Part shown: positions 11,185 to 18,014 of the stretch, in pieces
Layout of the letters: each line of letters opens with the position of its first letter
Position numbering within the stretch: the stretch's first letter is position 1
IMG/VR virus record: IMGVR_UViG_2778261276_000009
Location: 1 to 18,014 of that record
Direction: 5' to 3' (one strand)
From: a virus
Taxonomy: Duplodnaviria; Heunggongvirae; Uroviricota; Caudoviricetes
Length of the DNA: 18,014 nt
Made by a program: the position numbers and the translations under genes
The notes under the pieces: generated by a model
The model's database searches: none
The model's input: the letters and a program-made list of their open reading frames with translations, nothing else
What the model was told of the DNA's origin: nothing

Positions 11185-11877
11185 ATGATCGAATTTATCG
11201 CAGAGCATATAAACACAATAAGCACACTTATCTCCGCTTGGGCAGCATTGCTAACAGCAGTTGCTACATTTTTCTTGTGGAGAGTAACAAGGCTATTAGC
11301 AGACGAGACAAAAAGGATGGTTGACGCATCAGTTCAACCTCACGTCGTTGTGACTCTTGAACCAAATTCTTGGGCTGCTTTTTATTTTGATATCAATATT
11401 GCTAATACCGGAAATGCCCCAGCCTATGATATTGAAATCGGATTTAATCCCCCACTGGTAAATGCTGAACATAGAAAAAATAAAGGTATACCATTTAGCA
11501 AGGTTAGCGTATTAAAAAACGGCCATTCGCTCAACAGCAGTCTTTGTAAGTATGAACAGATTAAAGATCAAGTTTATTCTGTTAGTATTAGTTGGTCTAA
11601 ACAGCCGGGCTCAACTGAAAGAGAGCGGAATGAGTATTCTTATGATATGGCTTCTTTCGAGGGGGTTAGCTACTTAGGTGCAAGGAGTCCAATGACACAG
11701 ATAGCCGAGCAGGTGAAAAAGATTAGAGAAGACTGGAGGCCGATTTCCCATGGAAGCAAAAAAATTAAAACAGACAACTATAATTCAAGTGACAGAGCCG
11801 AGGAACAACGATTACGTGAAGAGTGGTATCAGACCACTGCAAAGAAATGGGATAAAGAAAAGCAAAAAGATAACTAA
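11185..11877 (+). CDS. Hypothetical 230-aa protein with single N-terminal transmembrane anchor
   Basis: AAGGA SD 6 nt upstream; hydrophobic segment about residues 12-33 (ISTLISAWAALLTAVATFFLWRV); preceded by about 450 nt without convincing coding sequence. Confidence 0.7.
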   Translation: MIEFIAEHINTISTLISAWAALLTAVATFFLWRVTRLLADETKRMVDASVQPHVVVTLEPNSWAAFYFDINIANTGNAPAYDIEIGFNPPLVNAEHRKNKGIPFSKVSVLKNGHSLNSSLCKYEQIKDQVYSVSISWSKQPGSTERERNEYSYDMASFEGVSYLGARSPMTQIAEQVKKIREDWRPISHGSKKIKTDNYNSSDRAEEQRLREEWYQTTAKKWDKEKQKDN

Positions 11878-12206
11878 TACAATTGACCTGATCCCCATAA
11901 ATTAGCATACCACAATCTCAGGTCCGCTCTTCGCTCACAGCGGACCTTCAGCTCCGGTAACTTATCCACTTCGTGCAAATTTCTCTCATAAGGGACAACC
12001 ATACTCAAATCTCCCACATTTCAGGAGGTATGAGTATGAGCACGTCACCGTGGAACAAAGACCAGATGGTCCGTTTAAGCGGGATACTTACAATCTAACT
12101 TCTGTTGGGTCAAGCCCTGAAAGCCGCTTAACATGAACTGTCCAACTTTATGGGGGCAGTCCAGTTGTAGCGGCTTTTTAGTATATCGTTAGAGGGGGGG
12201 GTAATA

Positions 12207-12998
12207 CTATACTGGTAATTGCTTTGTGTCAGGCATTGGCTCGGAAAATCTTTCAAAATCGCTGTACGTGCTTTCATCAAAGAGCGAGATCGCTTCAATT
12301 TGTTCGATAGGAATGACGTGTCGAAAATGTTGTAAATTTAATGGTTCGGACTCAAATGTGATTTCTTTGGATAGATAGAGATCATAGTATCGGTGTTGTT
12401 CTATGTAGCGTAGTGAATCCTTATCTCTGTAACCACTAATGAATGGTATGATCTCAAGATGCGCACAGTTGTGGAATTCAACACGTGGTGCTGCCACATA
12501 CCCGATATATACTTTTCTGGATTTTAGTGTTACAAAAATCAGCATCTCTGTGTCAATGGCTTGGATCAATAGGTTTTCTAGTGAATCTTTTGATGCCATC
12601 TCCCTGTAAGCCTTTTGGCGCGCTTCTTCATTCTCCATTTCTTTTCGCGCATCCACCCCTTCAGAGTAAGCAATACAACAAGCGAAAATGATGGTGATGA
12701 CAGCAAAAAGTGGTAATTCCATCACTTTGGTTTCAAGTAACCAATTAAAAAAATGCCATTCTATAGGTTTGTCTCGGAAAATATTGATTATGTGTGGGAT
12801 AGAGTTCAGTAGCCAGAAAAGCATGTAGATCCCGAGCGTCAAAAGAAATCCTTGAGCAACAAAACGACACCCATGCATTGCAACGTAGAAATAGGATGAC
12901 CACCCATTTGTTCTTGCGTGATGAATTCTCGATTGATAGTGATTCTCGGTGTACCAAAAACCACACACGAGAATCACAGTTATAATCAATGGACCCAT
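12207..12998 (-). CDS. Hypothetical 263-aa membrane protein (three predicted TM helices plus about 150-aa soluble C-terminal domain)
   Basis: ATG 12998 overlaps the stop of the upstream 72-aa gene (TAATG); AGGAAG SD; hydrophobic segments near residues 3-15, 46-63 and 96-112; no recognised catalytic motif. Confidence 0.7.
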   Translation of the reverse strand: MGPLIITVILVCGFWYTENHYQSRIHHARTNGWSSYFYVAMHGCRFVAQGFLLTLGIYMLFWLLNSIPHIINIFRDKPIEWHFFNWLLETKVMELPLFAVITIIFACCIAYSEGVDARKEMENEEARQKAYREMASKDSLENLLIQAIDTEMLIFVTLKSRKVYIGYVAAPRVEFHNCAHLEIIPFISGYRDKDSLRYIEQHRYYDLYLSKEITFESEPLNLQHFRHVIPIEQIEAISLFDESTYSDFERFSEPMPDTKQLPV

Positions 12999-13216
12999 TA
13001 AGCAACTTCCTTGTCTGTACGGTTATGTAGTTTTCGCAATTGTTTCATTTTCTTGATGATGTCTGCTTGAACTTCTGGGTTTTCTATGTTCAGGGTGGCA
13101 TTACCGTTCGCATCAACTGTAAGACGATATTTTGTCGTTTGCTCAAGATGGGTGTCAACATGGGTTGCTACAGCACTTGTGTATCGACGAAGCACTTTTC
13201 CGATAAGTGTGGGCAT
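12998..13216 (-). CDS. Hypothetical 72-aa soluble protein, first gene of the two-gene operon
   Basis: GGAGAG SD 6 nt upstream of ATG 13216 (track ORF starts at 13222, where SD spacing would be 0); stop TAA 12998-13000 overlaps the downstream start. Confidence 0.6.
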   Translation of the reverse strand: MPTLIGKVLRRYTSAVATHVDTHLEQTTKYRLTVDANGNATLNIENPEVQADIIKKMKQLRKLHNRTDKEVA

Positions 13217-13231
13217 ATGCATCTCTCCATT

Positions 13232-13300: not shown

Positions 13301-13394
13301 CGAATGAACTAGAGGGGAGGGTAAGTAAAATCGCTGCGGGTGCTTGAGGCTATCTGTCTCAGGCATGAACACCAAAAGGCAGATAAAGAAAAGC

Positions 13395-13465
13395 CCAGTT
13401 AACATTACGCGTCCTGCAAGACGCTTAACATTAATCTGAGGCTCAATCTATGAACGGCAAATCTA
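13395..13465 (-). ncRNA. Predicted Sok-like antisense RNA of the hok locus (position inferred, boundaries approximate)
   Basis: hok leader strongly resembles the R1 hok/mok leader, where Sok is transcribed antisense across the mok start region; no promoter hexamers confidently identified. Confidence 0.25.
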
Positions 13466-13506
13466 GGTTAGCCTCTTACGTGCCGAAAGGCAAGGAGAAG
13501 CAGGCT

Positions 13507-13662
13507 ATGAAGCAGCAAAAGGCGATGTTAATCGCCCTGATCGTCATCTGTTTAACCGTCATAGTGACGGCACTGGTAACGAGGAAAGACCTCTGCGAGG
13601 TACGAATCCGAACCGGCCAGACGGAGGTTGCTGTCTTCGTGGACTACGAATCTGAGAAGTAA
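13507..13662 (+). CDS. hok: Hok/Gef-family type I toxin (HokD/RelF-like)
   Basis: MKQQKAMLIALIVICLTVIVTALVTRKDLCEVRIRTGQTEVAVF is near-identical to HokD as recalled; upstream leader GGTGCTTGAGGC (13339-13350) and mok-like upstream ATG at 13450 resemble the R1 hok leader; 3' segment GCATCCTCAATGCACC (13709-13724) is complementary to the 5' end. Confidence 0.85.
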   Translation: MKQQKAMLIALIVICLTVIVTALVTRKDLCEVRIRTGQTEVAVFVDYESEK

Positions 13663-13719: not shown

Positions 13720-13755
13720 GCACCCGCGCTTAACCCTCTTTGGCGTTTTTTTTTG
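13720..13755 (+). terminator. 3' end of hok mRNA (T-run 13746-13754)
   Basis: Long T-run after a GC-rich segment; a perfect 9-bp stem with GTAA loop at 13672-13693 lies just after the stop. Confidence 0.45.
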
Positions 13756-13890
13756 CTTTCAGATAATAAATTTACCAAAATGGTTTACAAAATCATTTTT
13801 TATGATAATTTATTAGTCATGAAGTCTTCATCACAGGTTGTGCTCCGAAAATAGGCAGCCTGTTACTTATAGCGAATCGAGGAATTAACT

Positions 13891-14250
13891 ATGGCACTCA
13901 CTGAATTCGGTAAGGCCGTTAGAAAAGCGAGGATAGATACCGACTGCACATTGCTTACGATGGCTCAAGAACTGGGAGTAACTTCAGCTTTTCTGAGCGG
14001 TTTAGAAACAGGCAGTAAGAAAATCCCCAAAAAATGGGTAAAAGAGATTCAGGCTTTTTTCCTGAAAAGAGGTTATGAGATTAATAATCTTCAGGAATTG
14101 GCTGATGTATCTAATCAGTTTGTTTCCCTTGATGGATTGTCGCAAAATCAGCAAATGTTGGTTGCTGGTTTTGCTAAATCCCCATTAACACCAGAGCAGT
14201 TAAAGCGAATAGCAGAGTTGATGAAAAGTATTAATCATGTTGAGGGATGA
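13891..14250 (+). CDS. XRE-family helix-turn-helix transcriptional regulator
   Basis: 119-aa ORF, GAGGAA SD; HTH segment LTMAQELGVTSAFLSGLETG; inverted repeats upstream (AAAATG...CATTTT 13778-13801; TGAAGTCTTCA 13824-13834). Confidence 0.8.
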   Translation: MALTEFGKAVRKARIDTDCTLLTMAQELGVTSAFLSGLETGSKKIPKKWVKEIQAFFLKRGYEINNLQELADVSNQFVSLDGLSQNQQMLVAGFAKSPLTPEQLKRIAELMKSINHVEG

Positions 14251-14253
14251 TCG

Positions 14254-14736
14254 TTGGAACAATCAGCTTACACATTACGTGGAAATCGTGTTGCACCAAT
14301 GAGTATTGTTGATATAACAACTCGCGCTGTTAACTATAGCGCGATCTTCGACCTTAAAACGTTGAAAAGAAAAAAGCGGTTAGACCATGCATTTGAGTTG
14401 TTGAGTGAATATGGGATAACGCTCAATATCGTTGAGGATCGTGCGTGGACTAAAGCTACATATGATTTGACATCTGGGCATTACGATCCAATTACACTTA
14501 CAATTAGTGTGCCGAATCATACATTTGAGTTGGCATGTAAAGGTGATAGAGAAGCATTATTTGTGCTCTTTCATGAAATCGGACATTTGGTGTTGGGGCA
14601 TAGAGCGTTATTTCACAGTTCCAATAAACCACCTTCGCAAATTGAAGATGCTGAATGGCAAGCAGATTTGTTTGCCGAGGTGGTTTTGCGCGAATTAGGA
14701 TTTTATATGGATCAACTATCATTTGACTTTTTATAA
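14254..14736 (+). CDS. ImmA/IrrE-family (COG2856-type) zinc metallopeptidase
   Basis: HEIGHLVLGH (HEXXH) at 14569-14601; start 4 nt after the XRE stop; TTG at 14254 has a GAGGGA SD, the alternative ATG at 14299 has none. Confidence 0.8.
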   Translation: MEQSAYTLRGNRVAPMSIVDITTRAVNYSAIFDLKTLKRKKRLDHAFELLSEYGITLNIVEDRAWTKATYDLTSGHYDPITLTISVPNHTFELACKGDREALFVLFHEIGHLVLGHRALFHSSNKPPSQIEDAEWQADLFAEVVLRELGFYMDQLSFDFL

Positions 14737-14738
14737 AA

Positions 14739-14760
14739 AAGCCCTGCTGTAACAGGGCTT
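14739..14760 (-). terminator. Hairpin whose U-run is on the minus strand
   Basis: AAGCCCTG-ctgtaa-CAGGGCTT; the plus strand has the A-run before it and no T-run after, so it terminates leftward transcripts most efficiently. Confidence 0.5.
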
Positions 14761-15064
14761 AGGATGGAAAGTCCGATAACTTTCCAGTGCAGATGGAGAA
14801 CCCCACCGCCACACTTGGATTTGACAGATGCAAGTTTAGCGGTTCTCCCAACAAATCGCAACCTGTATGGGGATACAGGTATGCAGGGACTTGCTTGTTA
14901 TGGCAATGAAAATCTGTAAGGAATGCGGAAAACCGTGCGAAATTATTTTTCGTTATTCCGTTTGTATCAATGGAGTTATGCGATATGCGAGGAAGGGGCA
15001 CCCTTTCCCGATTCCTGTTTGTGGTTGCTCCCGAACGTAGAGTTGCATAATGATCTAATCTAAA

Positions 15065-15084
15065 CCCGCTTCGGCGGGTTTTTT
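15065..15084 (+). terminator. Intrinsic terminator, plus-oriented
   Basis: CCCGC-ttcg-GCGGG followed by TTTTTT (15079-15084). Confidence 0.65.
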
Positions 15085-15159
15085 GTTTTACGTATTCTGG
15101 TTTACAATCCACAGGCCAGCCTGAACAACTGGCACCTGCTGCGCCAGCAGAGACAACCG

Positions 15160-17256: not shown

Positions 17257-17286
17257 TTGACCAGACACATTGTCCGGGGCTATATT
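17257..17286 (+). promoter_or_regulatory. Candidate late promoter (lambda pR'-like)
   Basis: TTGACC (17257-17262), 18-nt spacer, TATATT (17281-17286), directly after the Q stop. Confidence 0.5.
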
Positions 17287-17346
17287 CCTCACGCGCCAGC
17301 AAAATCTGGCGTCGGGATTGGCGTCCCGGATGAAAAAGGCGACAAC

Positions 17347-17367
17347 AGACGCGCCAGCGTCTTTTTT
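17347..17367 (+). terminator. tR'-like terminator of the short late leader RNA
   Basis: AGACGC-gcca-GCGTCT followed by TTTTTT; two more hairpins (GCCAG...CTGGC, CGGGA...TCCCG) lie between promoter and terminator. Confidence 0.6.
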
Positions 17368-17525
17368 ATTGTCGTTTGCACTGTCGCATCTCAATGGTGG
17401 GCTGTGTGGGGGCGGAGCGATCCGCGCCGGTTCCTTTTTCCCGGTTACGCCAACCCTGCACAGTTCACCACCATACTGATTGGCGTCAGCAGTGGTGATG
17501 ATTCACATAGAAAAAGGATCATCCT

Positions 17526-18014
17526 ATGGCTATTCAAATCTCAGTTGAAACTCTTTCCCCGATCACCCATAACCAAATCCCTGTCATTACTACCGAGCTT
17601 TTGGCACAACTTTATGGCACCGAAACTAATAACATCAAAGTGAACTATACACGCAATGCCGAGCGTTTTGTTTGTGGGAAACACTACTTCAAATTGGAAG
17701 GGGCTGAGTTGCGGGAATTTAAGAACAAGGTTACTCAAAGTAACTTAGTTGCACCGCGTACAAAGCACCTCATCCTCTGGACAGAACGCGGAGCAGCCCG
17801 TCACGCCAAAATGCTGGAAACCGATCAGGCGTGGGAAGTGTTCGAAAAACTGGAAGACTGTTATTTCAGCCAAAAACAACCACCAGCAGCACAAAACACC
17901 CCAACCCAAAATGATGGATGCGCATTACTGATCCACTTCGATAAACACGGTCAGGTCGACTTCACGGAAAAACTACCCGCCGATGCGATGGTATGCACTC
18001 TGGAACGGTTTTAA
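17526..18014 (+). CDS. ORF6N/KilA-N-like domain protein, first gene after the late promoter
   Basis: 162-aa ORF with AAGGA SD; N-terminal region (VITTELLAQLYGTETNNIKVNYTRNAERFVCGKHYFKLEGAELREFK) resembles ORF6N-type domains found in antirepressor/Rha-like proteins; stop TAA is the last codon of the window. Confidence 0.6.
   Translation: MAIQISVETLSPITHNQIPVITTELLAQLYGTETNNIKVNYTRNAERFVCGKHYFKLEGAELREFKNKVTQSNLVAPRTKHLILWTERGAARHAKMLETDQAWEVFEKLEDCYFSQKQPPAAQNTPTQNDGCALLIHFDKHGQVDFTEKLPADAMVCTLERF

Follow-up and report, generated by a model that had tools for sequence, protein, structure and literature searches.

The window that we analysed, that is, the whole 18,014-nt stretch of IMG/VR virus record IMGVR_UViG_2778261276_000009 (Caudoviricetes), carries at 13757-15089 a compact group of genes built around an XRE-family repressor gene (xre) and the gene for a small ImmA/IrrE-type zinc peptidase. 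We regard this group as one cassette, autonomous and horizontally mobile, that has been inserted like a moron into the nin region of a lambdoid prophage. Its parts are, in order, an operator/promoter, xre, the peptidase gene, a minus-strand terminator hairpin, a predicted small RNA (sRNA), a small open reading frame (ORF) and a terminator. The ORF listing gives two plus-strand frames, one of 119 amino acids (aa) at 13891-14250 and one of 160 aa at 14254-14736. The stop codon of xre (TGA, 14248-14250) is separated by 3 nt from the peptidase gene, which starts with TTG and has its ribosome-binding site (GAGGGA) 7 nt upstream, within the 3′ end of xre. An initial annotation of this DNA had proposed an XRE gene closely followed by a gene for an HEXXH protein, and both ORFs are indeed there, the second protein containing FHEIGHLVLGH. 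The stretch with the pair is 99.9% identical to a lambdoid prophage of E. coli BCE049 that lies beside potC, where RefSeq and the Prokaryotic Genome Annotation Pipeline (PGAP) name the two products 'helix-turn-helix domain-containing protein' and 'ImmA/IrrE family metallo-endopeptidase'. By itself, the pair is thus an ordinary member of the Xre-COG2856 class and was already named as such by PGAP. It is distinct, as had been claimed, from the prophage's own CI/Cro switch, which sits elsewhere and comprises a LexA-family repressor gene (6320-7093, minus strand) and cro (7086-7301); ydaT (7298-7723) is present as well.

For the comparative analysis, we assembled 110 loci from Gamma-, Beta- and Alphaproteobacteria that encode a relative of the peptidase. 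The window protein (14254-14736, plus strand) is a minimal zinc peptidase of the M78/COG2856 type with the signature HEIGH...EDAEWQADLFA. Its 58 aligned homologues come from Enterobacterales, Aeromonas, Orbaceae and Burkholderiales, and nearly all are about 160 aa long; they share an invariant block, HExGH...H...H...EDxEWQADxF, which corresponds to the COG2856 pattern HExxH...ExxA[ND]xFA. Residues H107, E108, H111, E131, D132, E134, W135, Q136, A137, D138 and F140 are invariant in 28 relatives, and a direct scan of these with Pfam PF06114 (Peptidase_M78) gave 24 matches at E ≤ 0.01, the best with 1.2e-7, while phrog_87 ('metallo-protease') matches the window protein at E 1.7e-15. Among solved structures, the family profile finds CapP (7t5t) as its best sequence match (E 0.056, over the catalytic block), with the catalytic segment aligned to HELGH...EAQADLFA of CapP. 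The AlphaFold2 model is a single domain with a mean predicted local distance difference test score (pLDDT) of 89.7, and its three best Foldseek matches in the PDB are PprI (8sln, probability 1.00) and IrrE (3dti and 3dte, 0.99 and 0.98), followed by a M. tuberculosis 'transcriptional regulator' (6cyy/6d2s) and minimal zincins. The earlier assignment of the HEXXH protein to the ImmA/IrrE-type peptidases that are paired with an XRE repressor is therefore upheld by its motif, by the profile matches and by the predicted fold.

As a member of another metalloprotease family, Lit (Peptidase_U49) was considered and rejected: the NCBIfam Lit model reaches only 18.6 bits against a cutoff of 274 (E 8.5e-4) and covers residues 103-142 alone, and none of the 28 directly scanned relatives matches Peptidase_U49 (PF10463) at E ≤ 0.01. 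Local PADLOC matches to capP (residues 103-141, E 4e-4), RmrA (E 6e-4 to 3e-3) and Lit are all weak. We therefore assign the peptidase to the ImmA/IrrE family, in which it is both divergent and minimal, rather than to Lit. H116 and H121, in the loop between HExxH and the third zinc ligand, are also invariant, and this is where the cysteine-switch loop of CapP sits; by analogy, they could form a 'histidine switch' equivalent to the autoinhibitory cysteine switch of CapP.

The xre gene (13891-14250, plus strand) encodes a 119-aa repressor with an N-terminal helix-turn-helix (HTH) domain (HTH_3, E 9e-4). Searched against solved structures, the XRE family profile matches ClgR (9sf2, a 129-aa regulator, over the full length), the immunity repressor 8bny, PezA, SinR, DdrO, CapH and ImmR. 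In the C-terminal half the segment LDGLSxQQQMLVAGFAKS is strongly conserved, with F94 and A95 invariant. An XRE homologue lies directly upstream of the peptidase gene in 106 of the 110 loci, and from E. coli to Haemophilus XRE is 66% identical, compared with 52% for the peptidase.

Upstream of xre, we predict an operator for XRE at 13769-13789, a palindrome with the core TACCAAAATGGTT (13773-13785) that overlaps the -35 element of a predicted plus-strand promoter, P_xre (13784-13811; -35 TTTACA at 13784-13789, a 16-nt spacer and an extended -10, TGaTAATTT, at 13803-13811). The conserved palindrome core AACCAAWWTGGTT occurs, with at most two mismatches, in 67 of 80 distinct upstream regions, as opposed to about 3% of random 160-nt windows. 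More fully, TTnAACCAAWWTGGTTnAA is present in nearly all cassettes, its right arm merging into the -35 element (TTGAAT or TTTACA), after which the extended -10 follows; by eye, this layout of a palindrome-joined -35 and a TGnTAAATT-type -10 is recognisable in most relatives. The initial annotation had pointed to two inverted repeats upstream of xre. Both exist (13777-13786/13790-13799, 10 nt and 90% complementary, and 13816-13824/13826-13834, 9 nt and 89%), but neither is the palindrome that is conserved in the relatives. A plus-strand promoter that a promoter scan placed at 13740-13767 was not adopted, because it lies within a terminator remnant and does not have the conserved layout of the relatives. 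Apart from the pair's own promoter, the 18-kb window holds no further operator-like site except for one chance match with two mismatches, and no second XRE operator was found in any of the spacers between the peptidase gene and the small ORF. The simplest reading therefore is that XRE represses its own operon only.

The terminator remnant marks the place where the cassette entered the prophage. Upstream of it lies a complete hok/sok type I locus (13338-13662; Rfam sok 96 bits, Pfam HOK_GEF 1e-22), independent of the cassette, in which the 70-aa ORF at 13450-13662 corresponds to mok, with hok nested inside. In the related phage vB_EcoS-640R1, hok has the next nin gene directly behind it, the 92-aa gene and DUF968 coming within about 170 bp, with a single terminator and no cassette in between. 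The window aligns to this phage at 13322-13754 and then again from 15063, and 25 nt of the vB_EcoS-640R1 hok terminator match both junctions: on the left, a degenerate copy (TTAACCCTCTTTGGCGTTTTTTTTT, 13730-13757, plus strand) and on the right, an intact copy, T2 (15062-15089, plus strand), which was also found by a terminator scan and ends the cassette. Since the terminator of the cassette-free phage matches both ends of the extra 1.3 kb, we conclude from the alignment that about 1.3 kb (roughly 13757-15061) were inserted at the hok terminator.

The initial annotation saw in the pair a second, separate regulatory module with hok as one candidate target, and these observations bear on the corresponding view that the pair acts on a neighbouring promoter, be it that of hok or of other prophage genes, as ImmR/ImmA or CapH/CapP would. 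Regulation of adjacent cargo by XRE-M78 pairs is known from ICEBs1, from phi105 and from the cyclic oligonucleotide-based anti-phage signalling system (CBASS), and the cassette of the window does lie beside hok. However, the one operator-like site is at the pair's own promoter, the adjoining genes differ across 57 non-redundant loci, and a divergently transcribed operon as for CapH/CapP is lacking; hok is co-directional with the pair and ends at its own terminator. As a target, hok in particular was rejected, given that the cassette is inserted past the hok terminator, that hok/sok is intact with its own terminator in the cassette-free phage, and that hok is near only 16 of the 110 cassettes. 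Regulation of a neighbour thus strikes us as very improbable, and, judging from these sequences, the cassette controls neither hok nor the induction of the prophage.

Nor does the pair belong to the phage backbone, an alternative that the earlier reading had left standing. Besides its absence from the related phage, it is rare: the window-type cassette occurs in 6 of 5,426 complete E. coli genomes and an O55:H7-type variant (77-81% identical) in another 49, giving 55 in total, and only 10 of 50,697 phage records hold relatives (Klebsiella, Pasteurella, Pseudomonas H66 and JBD90, and Burkholderia phages). About 194 IMG/VR viral contigs carry relatives, and none was found among 72,556 plasmids. 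Decayed forms are present in E. coli NZ_CP035817 (our H96) and NZ_CP148507 (H95); one of the two retains promoter and xre only, whereas in the other the promoter and the beginning of xre are gone and the remainder is kept.

The genomic settings of the cassette vary. It is found in lambdoid nin regions in E. coli and Pectobacterium, and in Yersinia at the end of a P2-like prophage, beside integrases and a reverse-transcriptase gene. The Caballeronia cassette adjoins an SNF2/methyltransferase/HNH block and vapBC, that of Rheinheimera is flanked by tniQ and an Abi_2 gene, and that of Pseudomonas phage H66 adjoins an integrase. The nearest large ORFs of the 57 non-redundant cassettes include DUF968 (eight times), an SDH-type protease (five), DUF1367 (four), SRAP (three) and integrases, and Cap15, Old, AriA, AbiZ and RmrA were each encountered once or twice. 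In one Klebsiella phage, dinI follows the cassette. Because no neighbour is conserved, we take the cassette to be autonomous accessory cargo, which often seems to sit in hot spots that are also occupied by defence genes.

The cassette continues downstream of the pair. The initial annotation had named, as one possible target of the pair, a structured region downstream, and this region is indeed connected with it: in 105 of the 110 loci, the pair shares its cassette with a small-protein gene on the same strand, preceded by a predicted minus-strand sRNA. In the window, this gene (14900-15040, plus strand) encodes an unannotated 46-aa, basic and cysteine-rich protein, MAMKICKECGKPCEIIFRYSVCINGVMRYARKGHPFPIPVCGCSRT. 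The O55 variant is conserved throughout the downstream region, and its substitutions fit the single plus-strand frame 14900-15040. A 117-aa minus-strand ORF within 14759-15112 and plus-strand ORFs at 14764-14919 were rejected, since the substitutions fit that frame alone. Across the family, the small ORF starts 130-270 nt (typically 165-205 nt) past the peptidase stop and encodes proteins of 36-50 aa; members extend into the Alphaproteobacteria, and the betaproteobacterial versions are free of cysteine (e.g., EQVIYRMTITVKGRVIRRPDGKPFRIVLR). PGAP does not annotate the gene. In the hand-curated genome of Pseudomonas phage H66, it is the 36-aa gp67, which comes after gp69 (HTH) and gp68. In one Vibrio-type IMG/VR contig (L088), the small-protein gene is present in two tandem copies, about 200-400 nt past the peptidase stop.

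We take the small ORF to be a real coding gene, because pairwise ratios of non-synonymous to synonymous change (pN/pS) are 0.08-0.31, with synonymous sites near saturation, and because AlphaFold2 confidently models the protein as a five-stranded all-β mini-domain (pLDDT 81.6). The small protein is basic, β-rich and zinc-ribbon-like. A search of a word-indexed protein collection with the 46-aa protein returned no homologue, and an exhaustive HMMER search of 1.8 billion representatives gave only 12 small-protein matches and no informative fusion.

Between the peptidase gene and the small ORF, a hairpin (T1, 14739-14760, minus strand) directly follows the peptidase stop; it was found by a terminator scan and is kept across divergent loci. 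On the plus strand, an A-run precedes the hairpin and few T follow it, so that T1, as an intrinsic terminator, should work well for the minus strand and poorly for the plus strand. T1 would end a predicted sRNA of about 92 nt (14735-14826, minus strand) with two further hairpins, HP1 (about 14815-14788) and H2 (about 14787-14766), transcribed from a predicted promoter at 14833-14861 (-35 TTGCGA at 14861-14856, 17 nt, -10 TAAACT at 14838-14833). Among 74 distinct spacers between the peptidase gene and the small ORF, about 61 have the minus-strand motif TTGnnn-16/18-TAnnnT at a fixed position, the -35 element starting 40-50 nt from the start of the small ORF. This promoter is present even in cassettes of Beta- and Alphaproteobacteria whose spacers cannot be aligned to that of the window. 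On the plus strand of the spacers, no sigma-70 promoter that could serve the small ORF was found to be conserved.

Folding and covariation both point to the minus strand as the structured one. The sRNA has a minimum free energy of -35.6 kcal/mol (z -4.5), compared with -27.8 kcal/mol (z -3.0) for its complement, and the minus strand is the more stable one in 31 of 38 non-identical relatives (Wilcoxon p 1.4e-5). In the three-hairpin model, 90% of cells are paired, as opposed to 36-54% when the partners are slid, and 17 of 27 pairs display compensatory changes, values that none of 500 shuffles reached; the structure was drawn from one member and the sequences tested are related. The frequent G-U pairs of the minus-strand model would be A-C mismatches if the plus strand were folded. 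In Rfam, the spacers of the window and of 10 diverse loci matched no family, the only match nearby being a chance-level one to rsmX at 14983-15084. Promoter, terminator and structure together thus predict an sRNA gene in the spacer.

Two further features of the spacer deserve attention. The first is a palindrome resembling a LexA box, ACCTGTATGGGGATACAGGT (14861-14880, core CTGT-N8-ACAG at 14863-14878), which lies between the sRNA promoter and the small ORF and touches the -35 hexamer of the former. In about 40 of the 74 spacers, all of the Enterobacterales type, CTGT-N8-ACAG precedes the ATG of the small ORF by 36-47 nt, with two copies in Yersinia cassettes; its background frequency is 0.11 per kb. 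The LexA box of recA is CTGTATGAGCATACAG. With a matrix made from E. coli LexA boxes, the palindrome scores 11 bits, a weak to moderate match, while these boxes themselves mostly score 17-26. For this reason, SOS control of the Enterobacterales cassettes is possible and should be put no higher. Second, the loops of T1 and H2 share a word of 7-10 nt in 40 of the 74 spacers, compared with 3.6% in shuffles. These twin-loop words differ between cassettes while the stems are constant; at least 12 different words exist (for instance, TGCGCTAACA and GTTGACGCA in two cassette variants), and in one pair of close relatives both loops have been reverse-complemented together. Twin-loop cassettes include loci L002, L007, L008, L012, L087 and L110 of our set; in the window (hairpins 14739-14787), the loops match in part only. 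The complement of the twin-loop words was not found within ±2.5 kb of the locus. One idea, borrowed from plasmid copy-control RNAs, is that the twin loops may act as the specificity element of an antisense pair.

We propose the following mechanism. A dimer of XRE would bind the operator at 13769-13789 and repress its own promoter, and this repression would keep the expression of xre and of the translationally coupled peptidase low. Upon a signal of stress or infection, the M78 peptidase would cleave XRE in its C-terminal segment, so that the C-terminal helix is lost and the operon de-repressed. Cleavage of XRE is something that we infer by analogy with ImmR/ImmA, DdrO/IrrE and CapH/CapP; the candidate bond is the invariant F94-A95, the counterpart of F82-R83 in CapH. 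The raised transcription would then pass T1 into the 46-aa zinc-ribbon gene, the output of the switch, a read-through that is suggested by the missing plus-strand U-tract of T1 and by the absence of a conserved plus-strand promoter from the spacers. A constitutive minus-strand sRNA of about 92 nt, fully complementary to the intercistronic part of the read-through transcript, would set a threshold for this output. Antisense RNAs set such a threshold on the SOS-induced type I toxins of tisB/istR-1 and symE/symR. In Enterobacterales, SOS control may come on top of this, by way of the LexA-box-like palindrome that sits beside the sRNA promoter and ahead of the small ORF. We regard this full chain, an ImmR/ImmA-type cleavage switch with a small-protein output that is buffered by an antisense RNA, as the best available account, to be held tentatively and at somewhat less than an even chance. 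As to its role, the cassette is likely to be accessory cargo that serves as a three-component module, either toxin-antitoxin-like or acting in abortive infection or stress.

Several points weigh against this account. What the sequences show is the gene content and its conservation, the insertion, the operator motif and the coding status of the small ORF. Cleavage, toxicity, read-through and expression of the sRNA are all steps that we infer. T1 could still terminate plus-strand transcripts, and an unrecognised promoter, perhaps under LexA control, could drive the small ORF independently. About 13 of the 74 spacers have no minus-strand promoter, and pairing in trans of the sRNA with the translation start of the small ORF was no better than in shuffles (mean z -0.18). 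Being basic and apparently soluble, the small protein differs from classical type I toxins, and it displayed no likeness to known toxins or solved folds when compared with these. PADLOC-DB 2.0 did not recognise the genes as a defence system, giving weak partial matches instead. The window peptidase itself scores 21.7 bits with PF06114, just below the cutoff of 22, and the Foldseek matches to PprI and IrrE are weak (E 1e-2 to 2.5e-2, template modelling (TM) scores of 0.45-0.49).

A different division of labour would make the peptidase itself the toxin and XRE its antitoxin and repressor, leaving the small protein to act as a trigger, adaptor or activator that is limited by the sRNA and possibly by LexA. 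Lit, which cleaves EF-Tu, provides a precedent for such a peptidase, and in addition to the weak local Lit matches mentioned above (NCBIfam, PADLOC), precomputed weak matches to Peptidase_U49 exist in relatives, one of which was labelled 'toxin' by a source. COG2856 was listed as a predicted protease toxin with Xre as antitoxin (Makarova 2009, PMC2701414), and the LexA-like box ahead of the small ORF would fit a separately induced activator. However, the characterised M78 members (ImmA, IrrE and CapP) cleave their partner repressor and not host targets, and it is M78, not Peptidase_U49, that the relatives match when scanned directly. It would also be unusual for an antitoxin to be more conserved than its toxin, as XRE is with respect to the peptidase. 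We consider this alternative unlikely, if worth keeping in mind.

The same doubt applies to a reading in which the small protein does no harm and serves as a regulatory output (for example, an SOS-linked antirepressor, a modulator of division or of the SOS response, or a small nucleic-acid-binding factor), the cassette then being a non-killing stress switch that benefits the host or the element. LexA-controlled small antirepressor modules are known from other temperate phages (Tum of coliphage 186, the Gifsy antirepressors), and the LexA-like box of the Enterobacterales cassettes, the dinI gene that follows one cassette, and the basic, β-rich and zinc-ribbon-like character of the small protein would all suit such a function. 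Yet the beta- and alphaproteobacterial versions have neither any cysteine nor a LexA-like box, and it is harmful products that are more typically placed under both a repressor and an antisense RNA. A prophage-specific antirepressor is made unlikely by the fact that the cassette is not confined to prophages: it also resides in a Tn7-like element and in chromosomal islands, and beside restriction-modification and VapBC genes. A non-toxic output thus seems improbable to us.

Returning to the cleavage switch with a small-protein output, how does the cassette relate to known systems? With ImmR/ImmA of Bacillus subtilis (ICEBs1, phi105), it shares an XRE gene and a gene for an M78/COG2856 peptidase of about 160-170 aa in one operon, autoregulation and carriage by mobile elements, and by analogy we would expect de-repression by cutting of the C-terminal part of the repressor. 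ImmR, however, controls excision and transfer genes of its element and belongs to the backbone, whereas the cassette is optional cargo, absent from the related phage, with the one operator-like site of the 18-kb window at its own promoter. Moreover, ImmR/ImmA has neither the small-protein gene nor the antisense sRNA that the window cassette carries.

The protease-repressor logic is also that of CapH/CapP and of DdrO/IrrE in Deinococcus, CapP being the best sequence match and IrrE/PprI the best fold match of the peptidase. The CapH cleavage site has its parallel in the invariant Phe of the C-terminal segment of the cassette XRE. On the other hand, CapP and IrrE have extra HTH and GAF domains, a groove that binds single-stranded DNA (ssDNA) and, in CapP, the cysteine-switch loop, whereas here we find a bare 160-aa catalytic domain, with the two invariant histidines H116 and H121 in the equivalent loop. 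CapP and IrrE are furthermore divergent from the operon that is controlled; the window pair has no divergent cargo operon and lies downstream of the co-directional hok.

A third group consists of the three-component Xre-COG2856 systems that were predicted, in general terms, by Makarova et al. 2009 (PMC2701414), there with toxins of the RelE or PIN type, and of RosmerTA, in which RmrA, a fused HTH and M78 antitoxin, is combined with a variable toxin. Here too, HTH and M78 are linked to a third, presumably harmful gene, and, as mobile DNA, the genes are scattered patchily over prophages and islands. But the third gene of these systems is RelE, PIN or another recognisable toxin, and HTH and peptidase are often fused, while in the cassette they are split, and the third gene, 165-205 nt further on and past a predicted sRNA gene, encodes a novel β-rich protein of 36-50 aa. 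This protein has no recognisable toxin domain, and the matches to RmrA models are weak, as stated. Finally, tisB/istR-1, symE/symR and dinQ/agrB resemble the cassette, as we predict it, in that a stress-controlled small ORF adjoins an sRNA on the opposite strand, with a LexA-box-like site between the two in the enterobacterial cassettes. In contrast to these SOS-controlled type I loci, the cassette protein is not hydrophobic, the sRNA was not found to pair significantly with the translation start and would be complementary to read-through transcripts only, and stress control would be exerted by a repressor-protease pair, instead of or besides LexA.

In the literature, as far as our incomplete coverage allows, and in Pfam, PHROGs, PADLOC and Rfam, we have found no description of an arrangement of pair, mini-protein and antisense sRNA, nor of the stand-alone autoregulated architecture or the twin loops. 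What appears to be new here is thus the fixed association of an Xre-COG2856 pair with a mini-protein and a predicted antisense sRNA.

The prophage holds other features outside the cassette. Directly after the Q antiterminator gene, 17280-17475 and 17526-18014 match Rfam isrK (79 bits), C4 antisense RNA (74 bits) and the a1/b1 target (52 bits), and a KilAC/antirepressor-like ORF comes next, running off the end of the window. This region looks like an antisense-controlled antirepressor module similar to immI of P1/P7 or to isrK-anrP of Gifsy. The BCE049 prophage, otherwise near-identical, has other genes at this position. Between the replication genes and hok (11185-13222) lie a 230-aa phrog_11802 gene (plus strand), a gene for a 263-aa predicted membrane protein (phrog_3630, minus strand) and an overlapping 74-aa phrog_32583 gene; Pfam, NCBIfam and PADLOC gave no match for the three proteins, and these genes may be further accessory cargo. 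On the minus strand at 4893-5109, beside a dicB-like gene, the Rfam models STnc100 (33.7 bits) and DicF (28.6 bits) match below threshold, which suggests a dicBF division-inhibition region of the Qin/Rac type.

XRE-M78 pairs are among the commonest two-gene modules of prophages, and they are usually filed as 'regulator' or 'putative toxin-antitoxin' with no known output. In the cassette described here, a candidate for this output becomes visible, namely a conserved small protein, together with a small RNA, both of which were missed by annotation pipelines. For annotation, this means that two of the four parts of the cassette have been passed over in no fewer than 55 complete genomes of E. coli and in some 200 viral contigs. 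A wider view, which we offer as a possibility on the doubtful side, is that temperate phages, Tn7-like elements and islands of Proteobacteria may share a hitherto undescribed four-part sensor of stress or phage infection, made up of an autorepressor, a minimal M78 protease, an antisense sRNA and a mini zinc-ribbon effector, in which a protease-repressor switch would free a new small effector and the diversifying twin loops would prevent cross-talk between co-resident cassettes. If the proposed mechanism is true, the cassette would be a concrete and testable case of the three-component Xre-COG2856 systems that were predicted in 2009, its small protein would represent a new small effector fold, and a minimal ImmA-like protease, devoid of the GAF and ssDNA-sensing domains of CapP and IrrE, would be able to run a stand-alone switch.

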